Shown here: positions 12,043 through 22,563 of the stretch, in pieces
Numbering within the stretch: position 1 is the first letter of the stretch
Layout of the letters: each line of letters opens with the position of its first letter
Source: Candidatus Aenigmatarchaeota archaeon
GTDB lineage: Archaea > Aenigmatarchaeota > Aenigmatarchaeia > CG10238-14 > SCSR01
DNA length: 24,153 bases
Direction of reading: 5' to 3'
NCBI GenBank assembly: GCA_039000165.1
Contig: JAWBTW010000011.1
Location: 1 to 24,153, forward strand
Translations under genes and position numbers: made by a program
Notes under the pieces: model-generated
The model's database searches: none
Told to the model about the DNA's origin: nothing
What the model saw: only the letters and a program-made list of their open reading frames with translations

Positions 12043-13035
12043 TTACAGCTTCCTTATCTGATTGCAAAAATCTGTAGCAAGCTTTGCTTTATCTTGTGTT
12101 TTTTCTGAAGAAAGAATAAACCAGCACATAAGATAATCTATTTCCTTCCTTTTTTCTTCATCAAGCTTTTTTGAAATTTTTATTTCATACTCTATCTTTG
12201 CCCTTCTTTCGTGAAAATTGTAAGCTGGAGGAGAGTAAGAACTTACTATTTCTTTAACTTTATCGTAAGGAATTTCTTTAACTTTCTCTAGAGTAATCTC
12301 TTCCCTCACTTCTTTGACTTCCTTTTTCTCGATTTTCTTTTTGCATGTTTTTGCTTTAACTTTTTCTCTTTTTTCCTCTGCAATTATAGGAACAGTTTCC
12401 TTAATTTCAGGCTTAGCTTGTAAGGGTTGAGGTTGTGAAGGTATAACTGAAACAACTTTTGGGAAAATTTCTGGATAATATTCCTTAACAAGATTGTTTA
12501 TTTCATCCTCAGAAAGCCTCTTTCCAAAAGAAATGTGATATAGTTTAGCCAAATCCTCTTCCAGCTTATCCAAAGAAGCCTCTCCTTCTTTTCCAACAAA
12601 ATCACTTCCTAAGTAAATAATCAGGGAACCTTCACCTATATGTAAACCTAAAACAGTAGTAGTTTCTCCTTTAACTCCAGTATACCTTTTTTCAAAGATT
12701 GGGAAAAGTTTTCTTCCATAAACTACTTTCTCTATAAAATGTGTTTTTTTACCACGAAAAGAAGGAGGAAAATAAAAAATTAAATTTCCTTTCTCGCAAA
12801 TTATCGGAACCCTGTGAAACTCGTAACCAACTTCTTCGAAAAGATTTTTAAGTAAAGTTTCAAAAGTATGATAGCTTTTTTCTCTTAAGCTATCAAAGTT
12901 TGTTATTCTGACTCTTTCCCACTTTCCCTCTTTTTTATACTTCACATACTTTTTATCGATTATTTTTAACTCTGTTATTTCGCTTGTATCAAAACATGGA
13001 AAAATTTTTTTAACACGCTCGAAAAGGTCTGTCAT
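12043..13035 (-). CDS. Hypothetical protein (two domains joined by a Pro/Gln and Lys/Glu-rich linker)
   Basis: About 330-aa ORF co-oriented with neighbours, with host-like composition. No family recognised. Confidence 0.75.
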   Translation of the reverse strand: MTDLFERVKKIFPCFDTSEITELKIIDKKYVKYKKEGKWERVRITNFDSLREKSYHTFETLLKNLFEEVGYEFHRVPIICEKGNLIFYFPPSFRGKKTHFIEKVVYGRKLFPIFEKRYTGVKGETTTVLGLHIGEGSLIIYLGSDFVGKEGEASLDKLEEDLAKLYHISFGKRLSEDEINNLVKEYYPEIFPKVVSVIPSQPQPLQAKPEIKETVPIIAEEKREKVKAKTCKKKIEKKEVKEVREEITLEKVKEIPYDKVKEIVSSYSPPAYNFHERRAKIEYEIKISKKLDEEKRKEIDYLMCWFILSSEKTQDKAKLATDFCNQIRKL

Positions 13036-13067
13036 CAAATAAAAAATAAACTAAAAATTTTTAAGTT

Positions 13068-14525
13068 TTACTCGTACAACCTTCCTTCCCTTTTAATTCC
13101 TCTTTCAAAATCTTTTCTTGCCGAATCAGCAATTTCTTGAGCTTTTCTTGTAGGGTATTTTCCTGTAACGCAGCCAAAGCATAACTCGCTTTCTTTAAAA
13201 CCTGTAGCCTTTACATAATTTTTAATAGATTGATAAAAAACTCCGTCTACTCCTATAATTTTTGCTATTTCTTCTGGTTCATACCTTGAACCAATAAGTT
13301 CGTCAAAAGTTGCCATGTCTATGCCATAAAAGCAAGGAGAAGTTATTCTTGGAAAAGTAACGAAAACATAAACTTTTTGTGCACCCATATCTCTTAACTT
13401 CTTGACAGTAACTTTTGTTGTATCGCCTCTAACAATACTATCATCTAAAACAGCTACTCTTTTTCCAAAAACTTTTTGTTTCAAAACGTTAATTTTTCTG
13501 AAAATCTTTTCTTGTCTTTCATTCTGCAAAAGAATAAAGGCTCTTTCAGTGACGTAGCGATGCCTTCTTGTTGCTCTTTCCCATCTTATACCACTTTCTT
13601 CCTGAAAACCATAAGCTGCATCGTCAGCAGTTTCTGGCATAGAAATTACTATATCTATCTTATCCAGCAAGTCAGAATATTCTCTTGCTAGGTTTCTTCC
13701 AAACTCTTCCCTTATCTCATAAACATATTTACTTCCGTAAATTGTGTCTGGTCTTGAGAAGTAAGCAAACTCAAAAGAGCAAAATGCTTTTTTGGAAGTT
13801 TTGAGCTTACATCTTTCGAAACCCTTTTTATCAAGAGTTATAAGCTCTCCAGGCTCTAATTCAAACATAAAATCTATCCCGTTAATGTCAAAACCAACGC
13901 TTTCAGAAGAAAAAGCATAAAGGTTTTTGGTTTTTCCGAAGCACAATGGCTTAATCCCATGAGGGTCTTTAAAAGCAAACATTTCTCCCTTTTTGTTCAA
14001 CCCTACAACAGAAAACGCACCGTCTATTTCTTCCATGCAACTTTTAACTGCAGCACAAACATCTTTTTTCTCTTTTAACTCAAGAAAAAGTTTACCTGTA
14101 AGCAGTTCTAAATCACAGTTATAAGAAACCTTTCCTATTTCTTCTTTAATTTCTAAAGCATTCACAATGTTACCGTTAAAAACCGTCGCAAGAGCGAGCT
14201 CTTTATCCTTAACAACTATTGGTTGAGCTCCTCTAATCAAAGATTGTTTGTCAGTTTTCCCAGAAGTTGTATACCTTACATTACCTATTCCCAAATTTCC
14301 TCTTAATTTTTCTTCCCATTTTTTAGCATCTTCTTTGCTAATTTTTGGAACCAAGTCTAAAGCTTTGTAGATATTAAATTTTCCGTCGTAAGTTAAAATT
14401 CCATGGGATTGATGACCTCTGTGATTTAAAGCCCTCAAACCCCAGTAAACATAAGGAAAGGCTTGCTCGTCAAAACAATAAGCAGCAAAAACACCGCAAG
14501 CCTCTTTTACTTCCATTTTCTTCAC
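13068..14525 (-). CDS. purF: Amidophosphoribosyltransferase
   Basis: Short propeptide then CGVF (Ntn Cys), HRG, VRYTTSG, NGNIVN, CSFEFAYFSRPD, PRPP motif LDDSIVRGDT, Fe-S Cys in SPCFYGID and CFGC. Confidence 0.95.
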   Translation of the reverse strand: MKKMEVKEACGVFAAYCFDEQAFPYVYWGLRALNHRGHQSHGILTYDGKFNIYKALDLVPKISKEDAKKWEEKLRGNLGIGNVRYTTSGKTDKQSLIRGAQPIVVKDKELALATVFNGNIVNALEIKEEIGKVSYNCDLELLTGKLFLELKEKKDVCAAVKSCMEEIDGAFSVVGLNKKGEMFAFKDPHGIKPLCFGKTKNLYAFSSESVGFDINGIDFMFELEPGELITLDKKGFERCKLKTSKKAFCSFEFAYFSRPDTIYGSKYVYEIREEFGRNLAREYSDLLDKIDIVISMPETADDAAYGFQEESGIRWERATRRHRYVTERAFILLQNERQEKIFRKINVLKQKVFGKRVAVLDDSIVRGDTTKVTVKKLRDMGAQKVYVFVTFPRITSPCFYGIDMATFDELIGSRYEPEEIAKIIGVDGVFYQSIKNYVKATGFKESELCFGCVTGKYPTRKAQEIADSARKDFERGIKREGRLYE

Positions 14526-15775
14526 TCGTATTCTATTGTAGCAGGTGGCTTGCTTGAAACGTCAAAGTAAACTGCAGCAACATTACATTCATCAACTATT
14601 TTCTTTCCTATCTTTTCCAAAACATCGAAAGGAACCTCAAAAATTTCAGCATAGATAGCATCTTTGCTTCTGACAGCTCTCAAAGAAACAACATAAGGCG
14701 AGGTTTCATTTCCTTCAGCTATTTTATAAAGGGTTCTGGAATAACCTGTAACATAAGGAGTCACTTTTCCTCCCCAGCACTTAAGTTCTTCCATGTTTGG
14801 GATTTTTTCTTCCACACAAAGCGGAAAACTATAAACTCTTTTTTCATTAACTATTCCTGTAGCTTTAGAGCAGAGAACCCTTGCCCTTACTTTCCTCCAT
14901 GCTAATTTAATTCTTTCAGAAATTTCTTTAGGGACTTTTTCAAACTTGTTGTCAAAAGTTGCGGCAAAATATTGAAACGGAATTTGTTCCTCTGTTTCTG
15001 GATCGATAAACATAGTTGTACCGTAAAGTTCTTTTGTGTATTTCTCTATTCCTTGCTCAGCTATATCGTTTGCGTTTTTTTCTACTTCTAGCTTTTCTAT
15101 GTTTATCTTACCCACAGTTCTAACAGCTAAGCCAGGACCAGGAAAAGGCTGCCTTTTATCGACGCCTTTCAAAAACTTATAACCATAATCTTCGAATAAA
15201 GCTTTTGCAAGTTTTCTAACGTCATTTTTATACAAGCTTGCTAAGGGCTCGACAACTTTTTTAACTTTTTTAAATGGAACATCAACATTATGCTGAGTTT
15301 TGATTACAGGTGTTTCTTTTATGTCAGGAAAAATTGTACCATGCGTCATAGCATTACAATCAAGAGAAGAAACAAGGTTATCTGTAGTCAACGCATAAGC
15401 TTCTTGGAACCCTTTCCTTTTCTCTTCTGCATCCTCCTTACCAAAAACTTTTTCATAAAAAACTTCTCTTGCACTTATTAAAGAAAAGTTTTCTAAAGAA
15501 GAAAACCTTTCCTTTACTATTTCCGGCTCTTCTCTTCCTCTTATTCTTCTCATAAAGCCTGTATCTATATGAACAGGATATAGCCTTTCACCGATTGCCA
15601 AATCAAAAAGAGCAGTGTTAACTGAAGAGTCAACACCACCAGAAACCAAAGTTAGAACTTTATCTTTAGGCTCTATCTTTTCTTTTATAAATTTCGTTGC
15701 TTCCTCGATAAACTTTCTTGGATTTTTTCTTATTTCATCTTCGGGAAAAAACCTATGGCATACAGCTAAACTCAT
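14522..15775 (-). CDS. guaA: GMP synthase, ATP-pyrophosphatase (B) subunit with extended C-terminal region
   Basis: PP-loop VSGGVDS, GTIFPDIKE, IKTQHNV, RQPFPGPGLAVR, QYFAA, KPPATIEYE; no glutaminase domain. ATG 15775 preferred over TTG 15823. Confidence 0.9.
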   Translation of the reverse strand: MSLAVCHRFFPEDEIRKNPRKFIEEATKFIKEKIEPKDKVLTLVSGGVDSSVNTALFDLAIGERLYPVHIDTGFMRRIRGREEPEIVKERFSSLENFSLISAREVFYEKVFGKEDAEEKRKGFQEAYALTTDNLVSSLDCNAMTHGTIFPDIKETPVIKTQHNVDVPFKKVKKVVEPLASLYKNDVRKLAKALFEDYGYKFLKGVDKRQPFPGPGLAVRTVGKINIEKLEVEKNANDIAEQGIEKYTKELYGTTMFIDPETEEQIPFQYFAATFDNKFEKVPKEISERIKLAWRKVRARVLCSKATGIVNEKRVYSFPLCVEEKIPNMEELKCWGGKVTPYVTGYSRTLYKIAEGNETSPYVVSLRAVRSKDAIYAEIFEVPFDVLEKIGKKIVDECNVAAVYFDVSSKPPATIEYE

Positions 15776-15827
15776 GAGTAAAATAAAATCGTTAAAAAAT
15801 AAATATTTTCGGTCCCACCTCAAACTA

Positions 15828-15909
15828 TTTAAAAGCTTTGTTCTAATTTAATTTTTAGTGAGCAAGATGGGAGGTAAGCGCCTTCACGAAAAGTGATTTA
15901 GTTCACTTT
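15828..15909 (+). promoter_or_regulatory. Promoter and leader of the AbrB/tRNA-His unit, with a micro-ORF and hairpin
   Basis: TTTAAAA at 15828-15834. uORF 15867-15896 MGGKRLHEK* (in-frame GTG at 15858). Hairpin AAAGTGA/TCACTTT (15890-15909) covers the SD-like GTGAT and the TTG start. Confidence 0.45.
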
Positions 15910-16168
15910 GCTTAGTTCTGTTTCTAAAGTTGACTCGAAGGGAAGAGTTTCTATTCCCATTAAGTTAAGGGTAAAGTTAAAGATACTTGAAGGCTGTAGA
16001 GTGAAAATTCTAGCCAGAAAAGATAGACTGATTCTTATTCCTGAAAGATGGCCAGAATGGTGTAAGGGTAGCACAGGAGTCTGTGGAACTCCTGGAGCGG
16101 GTTCGAATCCCGCTTCTGGCCCAAAGGAGGTAATGCTATGGTATCGGAAGGGTCTATCGAAAAAATGA
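15908..16168 (+). CDS. AbrB/MazE/SpoVT (MraZ-like) DNA-binding protein whose ORF continues through tRNA-His
   Basis: SKVDSKGRVSIPIKLRVKLKILEGCRVKILARKDRLILIP is a full swapped-hairpin domain. TTG start with upstream GTGAT. No stop before the tRNA. Confidence 0.8.
   Translation: MLSSVSKVDSKGRVSIPIKLRVKLKILEGCRVKILARKDRLILIPERWPEWCKGSTGVCGTPGAGSNPASGPKEVMLWYRKGLSKK
16050..16121 (+). tRNA. tRNA-His(GUG) with encoded G-1
   Basis: Acceptor GCCAGAA/TTCTGGC, D stem GTGT/GCAC, anticodon arm GGAGT-CTGTGGA-ACTCC, T arm GCGGG-TTCGAAT-CCCGC, G-1 (16050):C73 (16121). CCA not fully encoded. Confidence 0.97.
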
Positions 16169-16422
16169 AAATGTTAGAAACGAAAATTTATAGCAATTTT
16201 TCAGAGTTTGTGAAAGATTTGAATTGCGCAAAGGTTTTCATAGAAAAAATTTTACCCGTAAAAGAGTTTAATCAGCGTACATTTCCTCCTGATAGTAAAT
16301 ATAGCAGAATAGAAGTAGAAGGCAAAAAATACCTAGTAAAACTCTCTTACTGCTTAACTAAAACAGTCTACATTCCATACCCTGTTTATAAGGATAGGGA
16401 ACCAGAACCTCCTCGACACTAA
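16138..16422 (+). CDS. Hypothetical protein
   Basis: 94-aa ORF with strong SD AGGAGG (16125-16130). Alternative in-frame ATG at 16165 overlaps the AbrB stop (ATGA). Confidence 0.6.
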   Translation: MVSEGSIEKMKMLETKIYSNFSEFVKDLNCAKVFIEKILPVKEFNQRTFPPDSKYSRIEVEGKKYLVKLSYCLTKTVYIPYPVYKDREPEPPRH

Positions 16423-16467
16423 AGCATAAACTAAAAATTATAAAACAAATATAATTAGAGGATTTTT

Positions 16468-17772
16468 ATGGAACTCAAGCCTTTAAAAGGGACAAGAGAT
16501 TTTTTGCCGGAAGAAATGATAATAAGACAGAAAATCTTGGAAAAAGTTAAGAATACTTTTGAATTGTTTGGCTTTCAGCCTCTAGAAACTCCTGCTCTCG
16601 AATCTTGGGAAATACTTTCAGCAAAAGGTGCTGGGGGAGAAGAGATTTTAAAAGAAACTTACAACTTCAAGGATTTAGGGAAAAGAAGAGTTGGATTAAG
16701 ATATGATTTAACAGTTCCTCTGGCAAGAGTTGTTGCTTCAAACCCAAACTTGCCTTTACCTTTTAAAAGGTATCAAATTCAAAACGTTTGGCGCTACGGA
16801 GATGTTTCAAAAGGCAGGTTAAGGGAATTTTTGCAAGCAGACATTGATATAGTAGGCTCAGAAAGTATGCTCGCAGATGCTGAAGTAATTGCCTGTGCGG
16901 TTTCTTGTTTGAACTCCTTAGGATTCAAAAATTTTCTTGTAAGAATAAATAACAGGAAAATTTTGAGCGCTTTAGTTAAATTTGTTGGGATAGAAGAAGA
17001 AAAAGCTTTGGAAGTTTTTAGAAGTATAGACAAGCTTGAAAAGATTGGTGAAGAAAAAGTAAAGAAAGAACTGGAAGAAAAGGGAATTTCTCAAGACTCT
17101 ATCAAAAAAGTTTTTGATTTTATAAAAATAGATGAAACTCCAGAAAAAGTTTTTGAAAAGATTAAAGATTTAAGCTTTGATGAAGGGAAAGAAGGAATAG
17201 AAGAACTGAAAGAAATCGTTTTTTATCTTAAGGAAATGGGAACTGATGCAAAAATTAAAATTGATTTAAGCTTGGCAAGAGGCTTGGATTATTATACTGG
17301 TCCTATTTTCGAGATTTCTGCTGAAAAAGAAATAGGAAGCATAGCCGGAGGAGGAAGGTACGATAAGCTAATAGGAATATTCGCAAAGAAGGAAATTCCA
17401 GCGACAGGAATCAGCTTAGGGATTGAAAGAATAATTGAGGTTATGAAAAAAAGGAAAATGATTGAGGAAAAAAAGTGTAAAACTAAAGTTTTTGTCGCAA
17501 CAATCAACAAAGAAATTCTCAAAAAATCTTTACCTCTAATCCAAAAGTTGAGAGAAAATGGAATAAAAACTGACTTTGACTTGAGGGAAAGAAGTTTAAC
17601 TAGACAATTAGAGTATGCAAACTCTTTGGGAATTCCTTTTGTCTTGATTTTAGGGGAAAAAGAGCTTAAAGAGAAAAAGTTCAGGCTAAGGCTTATGGAA
17701 AAAAAGATTGAAAAAGAGCTTAGCTTTGATGAAGTGATTAGAATTTTAAGAGAACCTCAAGAAAATTCTTGA
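16468..17772 (+). CDS. hisS: Histidyl-tRNA synthetase
   Basis: KGTRDF, LRYDLTVP, GRLREFLQADIDIVG, ARGLDYYTG, GGGRYD, GISLGIER and a C-terminal anticodon-binding domain. Confidence 0.98.
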   Translation: MELKPLKGTRDFLPEEMIIRQKILEKVKNTFELFGFQPLETPALESWEILSAKGAGGEEILKETYNFKDLGKRRVGLRYDLTVPLARVVASNPNLPLPFKRYQIQNVWRYGDVSKGRLREFLQADIDIVGSESMLADAEVIACAVSCLNSLGFKNFLVRINNRKILSALVKFVGIEEEKALEVFRSIDKLEKIGEEKVKKELEEKGISQDSIKKVFDFIKIDETPEKVFEKIKDLSFDEGKEGIEELKEIVFYLKEMGTDAKIKIDLSLARGLDYYTGPIFEISAEKEIGSIAGGGRYDKLIGIFAKKEIPATGISLGIERIIEVMKKRKMIEEKKCKTKVFVATINKEILKKSLPLIQKLRENGIKTDFDLRERSLTRQLEYANSLGIPFVLILGEKELKEKKFRLRLMEKKIEKELSFDEVIRILREPQENS

Positions 17773-17864: not shown

Positions 17865-17969
17865 TTATTCAGTTGTGAATTCTAAAATAACCAAACCACA
17901 TTTTTTACAAACAATCTCGCTCGATTTTTTCTCCAGCTTCTCGCTTCCGCACTCTGGGCATGACTTCAT
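17865..17969 (-). CDS. Stand-alone TFIIB-type zinc-ribbon microprotein (34 aa)
   Basis: Manually translated MKSCPECGSEKLEKKSSEIVCKKCGLVILEFTTE*, matching the CPECGS...EIVCxxCGLVI pattern. Purine-rich SD upstream. Below the ORF-track cutoff. Confidence 0.85.
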   Translation of the reverse strand: MKSCPECGSEKLEKKSSEIVCKKCGLVILEFTTE

Positions 17970-18088: not shown

Positions 18089-19888
18089 ATGGTAAAAAAG
18101 TTTGTTTTAGATACAAGCATAATAATCGATAGAAAAGTTAAGGAATTGTTGGAAAAGGAGAAAGAAGTAGAAGTAATTATTCCTTTGGCTGTTCTTGACG
18201 AATTGCAAGCTCAAGCCTCAAAAGGAAGGGAGCCTGGGTTTATTGGTTTAGATGAACTTAAAAAGTTAAGAGAATTTTGTAAGGAGAAAAACATAAAAAT
18301 AAGATTCACAGGAGAAAGACCAAGTTTAGAGGATATAAAACTTGCAAGAAGTGGAAGAATCGATGCTTTGATTAGAGATGTGGCAAAAACAGAGAAAGCA
18401 ATTTTGGTAACAGCAGATTATGTACAAGCTTTGGTAGCTGAGGCTGAAGGTTTAGAAGTACTTTATATTGCTCCAGAAGTAAAAGTTACTGGTTTAAAGT
18501 TTGAAAAATTCTTCACTCCCGACACTTTAAGCGTTCATTTGAAAGAAAAAGTTCCTCCTTTAGCGAAAAGAGGAAAACCTGGAAGGTTTGAACTTGTAAA
18601 AATAAGGGAAGAGCCTTGCACTTCTGAAGAAATAGAGGAAATAATAAGAGAAATTTCTGAAGCAACAAGGATAAGCGAAGAAGGCTATGTAGAAGTTGCA
18701 AGAGCAGGAGCAACAGTTTTGCAACTAGGAAATTACAGAATTGCAATAGCTAGACCGCCTTTTTCTGACGGTTTAGAAGTTACTATTGTAAGACCAATAG
18801 TTAAGCTTAGATTAGAAGATTATAAGCTTTCAGAAAAACTAATGCAAAGATTAAAGGAAAAGGCAGCAGGAATCTTGATCGCAGGTCCTCCTGGTTCTGG
18901 AAAAACAACTTTGGCCTCAAGCTTAGCAGAATTCTATAAAAATCAGGGGAAAATAGTTAAAGCAGTTGAAAGTCCTCGCGACCTACAAGTTGGTCCTGAA
19001 ATTACTCAGTATGGCCCTTTAGAGGGAGATTTTGAAAAAACTGCTGAGATTCTTTTGCTTGTTAGGCCTGATTATTCGATATTCGACGAAGTAAAAAAAA
19101 CAAAAGATTTCGAAATTTTTGCAGATTTAAGGTTAGCGGGAATTGGAATGATCGGCACAGTACATGCTACTGACCCAATAGATGCTATTCAAAGGTTTAT
19201 AACAAGAATTGAATTAGGAATGATTCCTCACATAATAGATACGATAATTTTTGTTAAAGATGGAGAAGTAAAAAAAGTCTACAAGCTTAGCATGGTAGTA
19301 AAAGTTCCTACTGGCATGACAGAAGCAGATTTGGCTAGGCCTGTTGTTGAAGTTAGAGATTTTGAAACTGATAAGTTAGAGTATGAAATTTACACTTATG
19401 GTGAAGAAAATGTGATAGTTCCTGTTAGCGAAAAAGAAAAAGTTTCTGCTTTAAGAAAGTTAGCAAGTGAAAGAATCTTGCAAGAAATAAGAAAGTTTGA
19501 TTCTAATGCTGAAGTTGAGTTCGTTAGTGATGAAAAAGTTTTGGTAAGGGTTGATAATGAAGTTATTCCTCGTTTGATAGGAAGGAATGGTAGTATGATT
19601 TCAAAAATAGAAGAAAAGCTTGGAATAAGCATAGAGGTTGAACCAAAAATTCCTGCCTTAGGGAAGGAAGTATTTTTCCAAATAAATGAAACTGGAAATA
19701 GTTTAGAGTTTATTTTTGATCGTAACTTAACAGGAAAACCTGCAAACTTTTATGTTGATGAAGATTTCTTGTTTTCAGCAACCATAGGTAAAAAAGGAAG
19801 TATAAAAATAACTAAAGCTTCTGAAATAGGAAAAGAATTGATGAGAGCTATAGTTTCGAAGAAAAAGATAAAAGTACTGACTTATTAA
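18089..19888 (+). CDS. PINA-like ATPase (PIN domain + PilT/VirB11-like ATPase + KH domains)
   Basis: VLDTSIIID PIN start, Walker A GPPGSGKTT, VESPRDL, FDEV, GTVHAT, KVPTGMTEADLARP, KH motif LIGRNG. Confidence 0.92.
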   Translation: MVKKFVLDTSIIIDRKVKELLEKEKEVEVIIPLAVLDELQAQASKGREPGFIGLDELKKLREFCKEKNIKIRFTGERPSLEDIKLARSGRIDALIRDVAKTEKAILVTADYVQALVAEAEGLEVLYIAPEVKVTGLKFEKFFTPDTLSVHLKEKVPPLAKRGKPGRFELVKIREEPCTSEEIEEIIREISEATRISEEGYVEVARAGATVLQLGNYRIAIARPPFSDGLEVTIVRPIVKLRLEDYKLSEKLMQRLKEKAAGILIAGPPGSGKTTLASSLAEFYKNQGKIVKAVESPRDLQVGPEITQYGPLEGDFEKTAEILLLVRPDYSIFDEVKKTKDFEIFADLRLAGIGMIGTVHATDPIDAIQRFITRIELGMIPHIIDTIIFVKDGEVKKVYKLSMVVKVPTGMTEADLARPVVEVRDFETDKLEYEIYTYGEENVIVPVSEKEKVSALRKLASERILQEIRKFDSNAEVEFVSDEKVLVRVDNEVIPRLIGRNGSMISKIEEKLGISIEVEPKIPALGKEVFFQINETGNSLEFIFDRNLTGKPANFYVDEDFLFSATIGKKGSIKITKASEIGKELMRAIVSKKKIKVLTY

Positions 19889-22463: not shown

Positions 22464-22563
22464 GCCCCTGTAGCTCAGTTTGGACAGAGCAGCGGCTTAA
22501 GTATAGTTTAATGAGCTGCCGAACCTAAGCCGATGGTCGAGGGTTCAAATCCCTCCAGGGGCA
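22464..22563 (+). tRNA. tRNA-Arg(CCU) with a 25-nt intron (22499-22523) at position 33/34
   Basis: Acceptor GCCCCTG/CAGGGGC plus A73, D loop with the Arg identity base A20, T arm GAGGG-TTCAAAT-CCCTC. Removing 22499-22523 gives the loop TT-CCT-AA. Strict BHB with central helix CGGC/GCCG and bulges TT^A and AA^C. Confidence 0.92.

Follow-up and report, generated by a model that had tools for sequence, protein, structure and literature searches.

In the attenuation of bacterial his, trp and phe genes, the cognate codons of a tiny leader report charged tRNA and control the genes of that amino acid, and the T-boxes of aminoacyl-tRNA synthetase (aaRS) genes in Firmicutes sense the charging of a specific tRNA upstream of cognate aaRS or biosynthesis genes. 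To our knowledge, archaea have neither T-boxes nor classical attenuators, so the way in which they sense amino-acid or charged-tRNA supply is largely unknown. Here we analyze contig JAWBTW010000011.1 of the metagenome-assembled genome of a Candidatus Aenigmatarchaeota archaeon, a member of a DPANN phylum (the window, 24,153 nucleotides (nt) in its full length), in which a short leader with His codons is followed on the same strand by an AbrB-type DNA-binding domain, a tRNA-His gene through which the AbrB open reading frame (ORF) runs without a stop, and hisS. The frameshift gauge of charged tRNA-His that we propose for this locus looks like a form of amino-acid sensing previously undescribed in archaea and, if true, would be an archaeal counterpart of bacterial attenuation and T-boxes.

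Two further kinds of described systems bear on this arrangement. In the E. coli tufB operon and in mitochondrial tRNA punctuation, tRNA and protein genes are co-transcribed and then split by RNase P and tRNase Z. In +1 frameshifting at the release factor 2 gene (prfB), the shift site is CUU_U, or UUU_U in a minority of species, a Shine-Dalgarno (SD) sequence acts as 5' stimulator, and the +1 product relieves the slow step, while Ty1 shifts at CUU_AGG_C, where the hungry codon is read by a scarce tRNA (both in the accessible part of PMC5009743). That same 2016 review states, in its accessible part, that starvation-induced frameshifting at hungry codons could yield functional proteins, but that "no examples are known" (PMC5009743), and the only programmed archaeal frameshift given in the accessible part of a 2021 review is one -1 case (PMC8211752). 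A literature search for the AbrB-tRNA-His arrangement, with subscription journals and preprint supplements outside its scope, found nothing; one match, in its accessible text, mentions tRNA-His only for split tRNAs.

Leader modules and the start-less AbrB frame

The window is the entire contig C11 of a 783-kb genome in 25 contigs with 33% GC (labeled G000). A preliminary description of this stretch started from an ORF at 15908-16168 on the + strand (86 aa from a TTG), which the open-reading-frame call confirmed, and overlooked the leader upstream of it. The elements of promoter, leader and domain are as follows.

15813..15820, + strand: conserved promoter element TCCCACCT, invariant or nearly so in 26 related leaders; candidate operator
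15826..15833, + strand: TATA-like box TATTTAAA, a conserved column block in the leader alignments; putative promoter function
15857..15862, + strand: SD-like AGTGAG, 4 nt 5' of the leader ATG; conserved as GGTGA or AGTGA
15867..15896, + strand: leader mini-ORF in frame 0, consisting of ATG, eight more codons including one His codon, and TGA; present in 26 of 26 leaders
15870..15887, + strand: module 1 in frame 0, with SD-like GGAGGTAA (15870-15877), spacer, CTT (15882-15884) and CAC (15885-15887)
15892..15906, + strand: module 2 in frame +1, with SD-like AGTGA (15892-15896), spacer, GTT (15901-15903) and CAC (15904-15906)
15899..15901, + strand: TAG in the AbrB frame, directly 5' of TTC ACT, which would halt ribosomes entering from GTG 15893
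15902..16049, + strand: output frame with a predicted AbrB/SpoVT-type DNA-binding domain (PF04014); the ORF of the preliminary description starts at TTG 15908

Related loci were collected by a six-frame search of 61 related genomes and then by a scan with one genome per species (80 loci, 20 Aenigmatarchaeota), after which loci from other orders of the class were added. In all leaders the modules take one form, an SD-like 5-mer (GGTGA or a variant), N4, one of CTT, TTT or GTT, and a His codon (CAY), and the 3' end of the 16S rRNA of G000, GGATCACCTCCT, is complementary to GGTGA as well as to GGAGGT. Insertions and deletions within the mini-ORF are multiples of 3, and no residue after the Met is invariant except the His (CAC or CAT). 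The first His site often has CTT or TTT, the second has GTT, and two leaders (L005 and L006) carry TCC at the first.

The relation between the reading frames follows the number of modules. Nineteen of the 26 leaders have two modules and the AbrB domain in +2, five have one module and AbrB in +1, and two are exceptions (L046 and L044). A script tabulated 17 of the two-module loci, in every one of which the first His codon lies in the frame of the ATG, the second in +1 and AbrB in +2; the other two, L005 and L006, were added by reading to give the 19, their first site (TCC CAC) having escaped the script. Without a shift all frames come to nothing early, as frame 0 runs into the TGA inside the second SD-like motif, frame 1 reaches its stop 2-9 codons past the second His codon, and frame 2 is blocked upstream by the TAG. 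This position reads TAG in 18 of the 26 leaders, CAG in 3 and TGG in 1. Moreover, no start codon is conserved in the AbrB frame, and six leaders (L004, L006, L007, L010, L014 and L016) contain no ATG, GTG or TTG at all between the in-frame TAG and the domain. Indels between TTCAC and the domain are again all multiples of 3.

The products of this frame avoid the amino acid of the sensor codon. His occurs only twice in the 2240 codons of the AbrB-frame outputs, both times in the exceptional loci L046 and L044, against about 29 expected from a genome background of 1.29%, and the output frame of the window has none. The histidyl-tRNA synthetase (HisRS) of the window likewise has 0 His in 434 residues, and His is absent from the HisRS of all 20 Aenigmatarchaeota genomes compared (that of the window and 19 related ones), down to 37% identity; the sole outgroup HisRS, from Nanohaloarchaea, has 4. 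The same holds for Trp in a TrpE that lies behind a Trp module (0 of 452 residues; see below). From their composition, these cognate-poor proteins appear to be built for synthesis at times when the cognate charged tRNA is short.

Taking anatomy and composition together, we think it fairly probable that the locus is a conserved His-responsive operon that works by +1 frameshifting, of the prfB and Ty1 kind, at a hungry cognate codon. A single promoter would give one transcript bearing in turn the short translated leader, the AbrB-type protein, an extra tRNA-His and hisS. Translation would begin at the leader ATG and, in the default case, end after nine codons. In each module ribosomes would meet an internal SD-like sequence 4 nt 5' of the shift-prone CTT, TTT or GTT and then a His codon. 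With charged tRNA-His in short supply, the A site would stay empty and the ribosome would slip +1, and two such slips (in this window) or one (in other lineages) would bring it into the AbrB frame. The shifted ribosome would translate the His-free AbrB domain, continue across tRNA-His and terminate at or next to the following start. More tentatively, termination there could serve a hand-over to the next gene by translational coupling, or the ribosome could keep pace behind RNA polymerase (anti-polarity, an idea for which archaeal polarity factors are invoked), so that a transcript including the tRNA would be completed. Shortage of His-tRNA would in the end bring more regulator, more tRNA-His and more HisRS.

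Such a device shares with attenuation a translated leader with cognate codons upstream of the genes for that amino acid, but has one cognate codon per module and a reading-frame read-out; no terminator-like site, terminator/antiterminator hairpin or U-tract was found on the + strand between 15500 and 16700. As in T-boxes, the charging of a specific tRNA would be sensed upstream of cognate genes, but here sensing would take place in the ribosomal A site, there is no specifier-loop architecture, and no T-box was matched, a scan of the window at Rfam gathering thresholds returning two tRNAs only. A tRNA and a coding sequence share one transcript, as in tufB and mitochondria; here, however, the tRNA lies within an ORF of the same strand, is conserved there across orders, and has the same amino acid as both the sensor codon and the aaRS behind it. 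The closest likeness in layout is to prfB, as far as the accessible part of PMC5009743 describes it, in that a short frame-0 ORF, which stops soon after the shift site, precedes a start-less +1 product that would relieve the slow step. This layout is present in 24 of 26 His leaders, in 11 Cys leaders and at the hisG of locus L201. The likeness is less close for the CUU shift codon of prfB (UUU in a minority) with its slow A-site codon, as GTT and TCC also occur at the His sites, and for the 5' SD stimulator, of which the SD-like motif of the modules is a candidate counterpart. The differences are that the slow codon here is a sense codon read by the cognate aminoacyl-tRNA instead of the UGA of prfB, that the SD spacing is initiation-like, that modules may stand in tandem, that the host is an archaeon, and that the outputs are a regulator, a tRNA, an aaRS and biosynthetic enzymes. 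Ty1 and ABP140 also place CUU in the P site before a sense codon with a scarce tRNA (accessible part of PMC5009743), but the scarcity in Ty1 is constitutive, owing to a rare tRNA, and is not an amino-acid gauge wired to its own pathway. We infer a novel form of autoregulatory +1 frameshifting, combined with a conserved frame that runs through a tRNA; if true, it would be the first natural case of starvation-induced frameshifting at hungry codons that yields functional trans-frame proteins. It would also give a rationale for three oddities of this genome, namely the ORF through the tRNA, a second tRNA-His in 0.78 Mb, and a HisRS free of His.

tRNA-His and hisS behind the AbrB domain

Downstream of the domain, the frame enters the following elements.

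16050..16121, + strand: tRNA-His(GTG) with encoded G-1 (16050) and discriminator C73; called by ARAGORN at 16051-16122 and by Rfam at 16051-16121 (62 bits)
16122..16168, + strand: read-through tail, to the TGA at 16166-16168; overlaps an SD (16126-16130) and the start region of ORF94
16138..16422, + strand: ORF94, a small family-less protein, missing from some strains and relatives
16468..17772, + strand: hisS, encoding HisRS (PF13393, E 4e-50; PF03129)

Between the end of the domain (LILIPER) and the tRNA there are zero stop codons, and the frame terminates at TGA 16166-16168, which overlaps an in-frame ATG (16165) of ORF94. The intervals 15869-16077 and 16048-16427 recur without a single difference in contigs from four independent public runs of hot-spring DNA; as the junction is identical in all four, the stop-free reading is not an assembly error, a case that had been named as refuting. 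Of the strain variants listed for the AbrB part, roughly half (counted by hand) are at third codon positions, and the tRNA has none. The sequence bears out what the preliminary description had reported of the locus: the AbrB-type domain (PF04014 above its curated cut-off), the tRNA-His at the junction (called by both ARAGORN and Rfam), the missing stop before it, the ATGA overlap with the next gene, the SD 3' of the tRNA and the linkage to hisS. Its guess of a DPANN host holds as well.

Conservation across relatives, which had been proposed as a check, was found as well. Among 21 distinct loci from several families and orders (L001-L011, L014, L016, L035, L040, L046, L048, L091, L144, L150 and L151), AbrB abuts tRNA-His without a stop in 21 of 21, and the frame is open across the whole tRNA in 20; in the exception, L016, a TGA lies 3 nt before the tRNA 3' end. 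Such recurrence exceeds what chance would give; for comparison, 23 of 129 tRNA-by-frame combinations in G000 are open. Junction lengths vary by multiples of 3 within each entry type (7, 10 and 22 nt in one, 11 and 14 nt in the other), the "W" entry going with a 72-nt tRNA and the "G" entry, in most cases, with a 73-nt tRNA. Moreover, a 1-nt change at the junction paired with a 1-nt change in the D-loop has arisen at least twice, in the lineage of L001-L003 and in L007, with a hisS that shares only 64% identity with its G000 counterpart. The end of the frame tends to meet the next gene: the stop overlaps the next start in an ATGA-type manner in L004, L010, L040 and L091, and does so at an internal ATG in L001, L002 and L005; it is directly adjacent to the start in L046, lies 4-5 nt from it in L008 and L009, and in L007 the read-through frame is fused in frame to hisS. 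Overlap or adjacency (ATGA, TAATG or directly adjacent) occurs in about half of the loci. The open frame, the frame-keeping junction indels and the stop at the next start are three features that point to translation of the unprocessed transcript.

The embedded tRNA is, on the covariation in the alignment, functional and under strong structural selection. In 15 linked orthologues 99% of the cells of the cloverleaf are paired and 12 of 22 pairs show a compensatory change, which none of 500 shuffles matched, and the G-1:C73 pair is present in 14 of 14 distinct rows. A second, canonical and GC-richer tRNA-His(GTG) lies on the - strand of contig C8 (9649-9723; L111), the contig that also holds the 16S rRNA 3' end, and the operon-embedded copy is therefore an extra isodecoder; linked and canonical copies occur together in at least seven other genomes. 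Two linked tRNAs are unusual, that of L011 having a degenerate T arm and no ARAGORN call, and that of L040 (= L152) an insertion of ~12 nt between D arm and anticodon arm, across which the AbrB frame stays open. An AT dinucleotide precedes the encoded G-1 in almost all tRNA-His genes of L001-L028, whether linked to AbrB or not, and may be a 5'-processing determinant.

The upstream protein is, judged by profile similarity, a genuine member of the AbrB N-domain family. PF04014 (SpoVT/AbrB-MazE) scores 27.9 bits on its residues 5-47, where the cut-off is 24.7, and a profile of 19 sequences matches the solved N-domains of B. subtilis AbrB (1yfb and 1z0r) at E about 2e-8. Only 2 relatives of the ORF were found in a protein database of 5.8 billion sequences; start-less +1 genes, if true, would explain such missed or mis-started gene calls. 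In L013, L018 and L043 the domain is fused in frame to a racemase, and in L012, L017, L019, L021 and L044 it carries a short non-conserved tail. AbrB homologues beyond the phylum have neither leader nor tRNA, and all but one are without hisS.

The first 12 AbrB-tRNA-His loci all have hisS further along the same strand, compared with 0 of 9 unlinked tRNA-His loci, and elsewhere hisG, a hisZ-like HisRS paralogue, a hisC-HAD fusion, an Asp/Glu racemase or a GNAT gene lies between tRNA and hisS. Because of hisS and these other his genes, we regard the unit as a histidine-related operon headed by an AbrB-type protein. The upstream neighbors of the cassette vary. That one promoter serves the whole unit, as had been suspected, agrees with the alignments, in which the only conserved promoter-like element precedes the leader and no conserved TATA box lies ~30 nt 5' of the tRNA. 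This element, TCCCACCT-N5-TATTTAAA (15813-15833), occurs in this context once in the 783-kb genome, and nucleotide conservation is stronger in the leader than in the coding region. TCCCACCT, beside the TATA box, is perhaps a target site of the AbrB protein, and the regulator may act back on its own promoter, as the preliminary description had suggested.

The small gene between tRNA and hisS is a variable part of the operon. A Pfam scan of ORF94 gave zero matches, and orthologues occur in L002 and L005. One strain in a public run is without it, its contig skipping 16125-16468 and joining the tRNA 3' flank to hisS by 42 other letters, as in the relative L003.

Modules with other sensor codons

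To follow the module beyond tRNA-His loci, 371 genomes of the phylum were searched with the pattern ATGGGTGAANNNCTT and, as a control, with the reversed pattern. The pattern gave 81 matches in 69 genomes (76 sequences fetched and 5 known already) versus roughly 25 for the control; a looser pattern, GGTGANNNNGTTCAY, matched 191 of 371 genomes and was too unspecific for a clean census. Matches were taken as cassette-like if an SD-like motif preceded the ATG, frame 0 stopped within 20 codons and a long +1 ORF or tandem module followed. There were 41 of these (36 of the 76 fetched and the 5 known), with a codon after CTT for Cys in 18, His in 12, Pro in 6, Trp in 3 and unclear in 2; in the other 40 fetched matches frame 0 is long and the next codons are diverse. 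The codon after CTT agrees with the genes behind it.

Cys sensor: +1 outputs are PF00291 cysK-like PALP enzymes (L184, L190, L169) or a winged helix-turn-helix (wHTH) protein (with cysS)
Trp sensor: +1 output is anthranilate synthase I, TrpE (L189)
His sensor: +1 outputs are HisRS (L160), hisG (L201), racemase (L206) or AbrB (L158)
Pro sensor: +1 output is a ~30-codon connector through tRNA-Pro(UGG), followed by a tRNA-binding protein and ProRS (L175, L177)

In L201 the conserved N-terminus of HisG begins directly after the shift site, without a start codon. The His module also stands directly before a hisZ-like ORF (L040), hisG (L046), GNAT genes (L143, L144, L150 and L146) and a 400-aa ORF (L155), each time with the output in +1. 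The domain-less connector ORF that runs through tRNA-Pro was found at 4 loci.

The genome of the window holds a Cys cassette of its own, on the minus strand of contig C13 at about 12973-14760 (L112), where a mini-ORF with CTT TGC precedes, in the +1 frame, a start-less ORF for an ArsR-type wHTH protein (PF01022) that is stop-free through an intron-containing tRNA-Cys and is followed by cysS. Eleven related Cys loci keep NTT-TGC and the +1 relation, with CTT or TTT in 9 of the 11 leaders. Conserved promoter-proximal elements of the Cys and Pro leaders differ from those of the His leaders, which fits one dedicated regulator per system. On these grounds we propose, with the odds about even, that Aenigmatarchaeota carry modular gauges of aminoacyl-tRNA supply (His, Cys, Trp and Pro), in which an internal SD-like sequence would hold the ribosome on CUU and a +1 shift at one hungry codon would lead into a start-less frame. 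This frame would encode a dedicated transcription factor and run through an inducible extra copy of the cognate tRNA to aaRS and biosynthesis genes, with products purged of the limiting amino acid. With a short, portable module whose sensor codon predicts the pathway, the question can be tested directly with reporters.

Several further loci are less clear in their outputs. Those of L197 and L202 (Trp modules), L166, L167, L195 and L155 are Pfam-less (245-414 aa) or short (35 codons) and lie before unannotated genes. Genome-wide module scans of G000 returned, besides the Cys cassette, only weak candidates of Lys/Asn type, one near 38933 on the minus strand of contig C2 (TTT AAA, Lys, with a 316-codon +1 ORF resembling a radical-SAM protein) and one near 67370 of C2 (GTT AAC, Asn), both of which may be chance matches.

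Competing explanations and minor observations

A number of observations weigh against the frameshift, or against a role for the run through the tRNA. The SD-to-shift-site spacing of prfB is a tight 3 nt, whereas that of the modules is initiation-like, as 4 nt after GGTGA equals 7 nt after GGAGG (compare GGAGGT-N6-ATG at ORF94 with GGAGGTAA-N4-CTT in module 1), and suggests an SD-like motif that holds the ribosome rather than pushes it. GTT, and TCC in L005 and L006, are poor re-pairing codons for a +1 slip, and two low-efficiency shifts in series would be expected to give very little product. L046 and L044 break the frame rule and have a GTG start in the AbrB frame, 7-8 leaders, that of this window included, have a TTG two codons past the TAG as a possible weak start, and three leaders have CAG or TGG for the TAG, behind an in-frame GTG. 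As to the tRNA, the entry frame used in the cassette is also open in 6 of 9 tRNA-His genes that are not linked to AbrB, so openness alone is weak evidence of selection, and the relatives sampled are not independent. At Cys loci with an adjacent tRNA-Cys only 2 of 4 are open through it, and read-through is not needed there.

Some of these points have been considered as parts of explanations without recoding, in which AbrB would be made from the TTG, from a near-cognate codon, by re-initiation after the mini-ORF or by GTG initiation with TAG read-through, and the GGTGA...TTCAC motifs would be palindromic operators or RNA hairpins for self-repression by AbrB. AbrB-family proteins commonly autoregulate, the GGTGAA-N4-TTCAC inverted repeat lies at or just past the expected transcription start, where archaeal repressors usually bind, the TTG of 7-8 leaders would be at hand, and the replacements of TAG (CAG, TGG and TAY) are each one change away from it. 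Yet variants in the SD half that break the repeat (GGCGA, GGTAA, GGGGA and GAGGA) are uncompensated in TTCAC, the module precedes enzymes (hisG, hisS, cysK-like and trpE) at loci without AbrB, and several outputs, for example the hisG of L201, have no canonical start. An AbrB operator would also not be expected to change its last codon to Cys, Trp or Pro according to pathway while GGTGA-N4-CTT stays constant, and we consider this explanation unlikely. We find it similarly doubtful that the leader is a sensor while the run through the tRNA is functionless, the stop having been lost in a compacted genome and the ORF ending at the first AT-rich stop after the tRNA, although as an account of the tRNA read-through by itself this neutral alternative keeps appreciable weight. 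It agrees with the open frame in unlinked tRNA-His genes, with the non-conserved tails of 11-29 residues on AbrB copies that no tRNA follows, and with the Cys system, where 2 of 4 regulators stop before or inside tRNA-Cys. It agrees less well with 20 of 21 open loci, among them L040 with its tRNA insertion, when few of these loci are open in either of the other two frames, nor would it call for the compensated frame changes, the stop-start contacts in about half of the loci, the in-frame hisS fusion of L007 or the domain-less connector through tRNA-Pro.

The model put forward in the preliminary description fares worse than its anatomy, and we regard it as highly improbable. It held that the transcript serves either as mRNA or as pre-tRNA, that excision by RNase P and tRNase Z leaves a non-stop AbrB mRNA, and that regulator output could in this way be tied to tRNA-His maturation or translation, which would make it dependent on ribosome rescue. 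The lack of a stop before the tRNA in 21 of 21 loci would suit it, as would a clearly functional tRNA that has to be excised and lacks a conserved TATA box ~30 nt upstream. In addition, three different combinations of frames are used to read the tail encoded by the tRNA, and the sequence of this tail is therefore not under protein-level selection. However, in an mRNA that ends at the 5' end of the tRNA, the frame within the tRNA and the stop beyond it are irrelevant, and yet the frame is open through the tRNA, junction indels keep it, 1-nt junction changes are paired with 1-nt D-loop changes (at least twice), and the stop is usually found where the next gene starts. Nor does the model account for the leader, for an AbrB frame that lacks a start codon or for the avoidance of His. 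In the form proposed, the coupling to tRNA maturation is not supported, and it is not required; under the frameshift reading, the link to histidine status would lie instead in the leader, with its His-codon modules and start-less AbrB frame.

Other candidates were tried and set aside. Completion of a stop by polyadenylation after RNase P cleavage, as in mitochondria, is at odds with the T at -2, for which codon position 1 is found in the 72-nt type alone, and with the AT that precedes G-1 in unlinked genes too. TAG is an ordinary stop in this genome, where it ends 100 of 490 long ORFs, and was rejected as a sense codon. Neither a ribosomal hop across TGA and TAG nor a single -1 shift fits the sequence, in which matching take-off and landing codons are missing and the TAG comes after the TGA. 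For a bulge-helix-bulge intron joining mini-ORF and AbrB, the bulges, inspected by eye, are symmetric (4x4) with no 4-bp helix between them. No repeat or integrase of an element integrated at the tRNA was seen, and the upstream neighbors vary while the cassette is constant. An RNA hairpin or DNA palindrome as the selected feature found no support, as variants in the putative stems are uncompensated.

Elsewhere in the window, a 100-nt tRNA at 22464-22563, found by Rfam only, is called by ARAGORN with introns allowed as tRNA-Ile with an 11-nt intron; introns are common among the tRNAs of this genome, some of them at unusual positions. A PIN-ATPase-KH fusion protein is encoded at 18089-19888, and in L002 a PIN-ATPase gene is the upstream neighbor of the cassette. 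On the strand opposite to the PIN-ATPase-KH gene, 17865-17969 encodes a 34-aa mini-protein with a TFIIB-type zinc ribbon.

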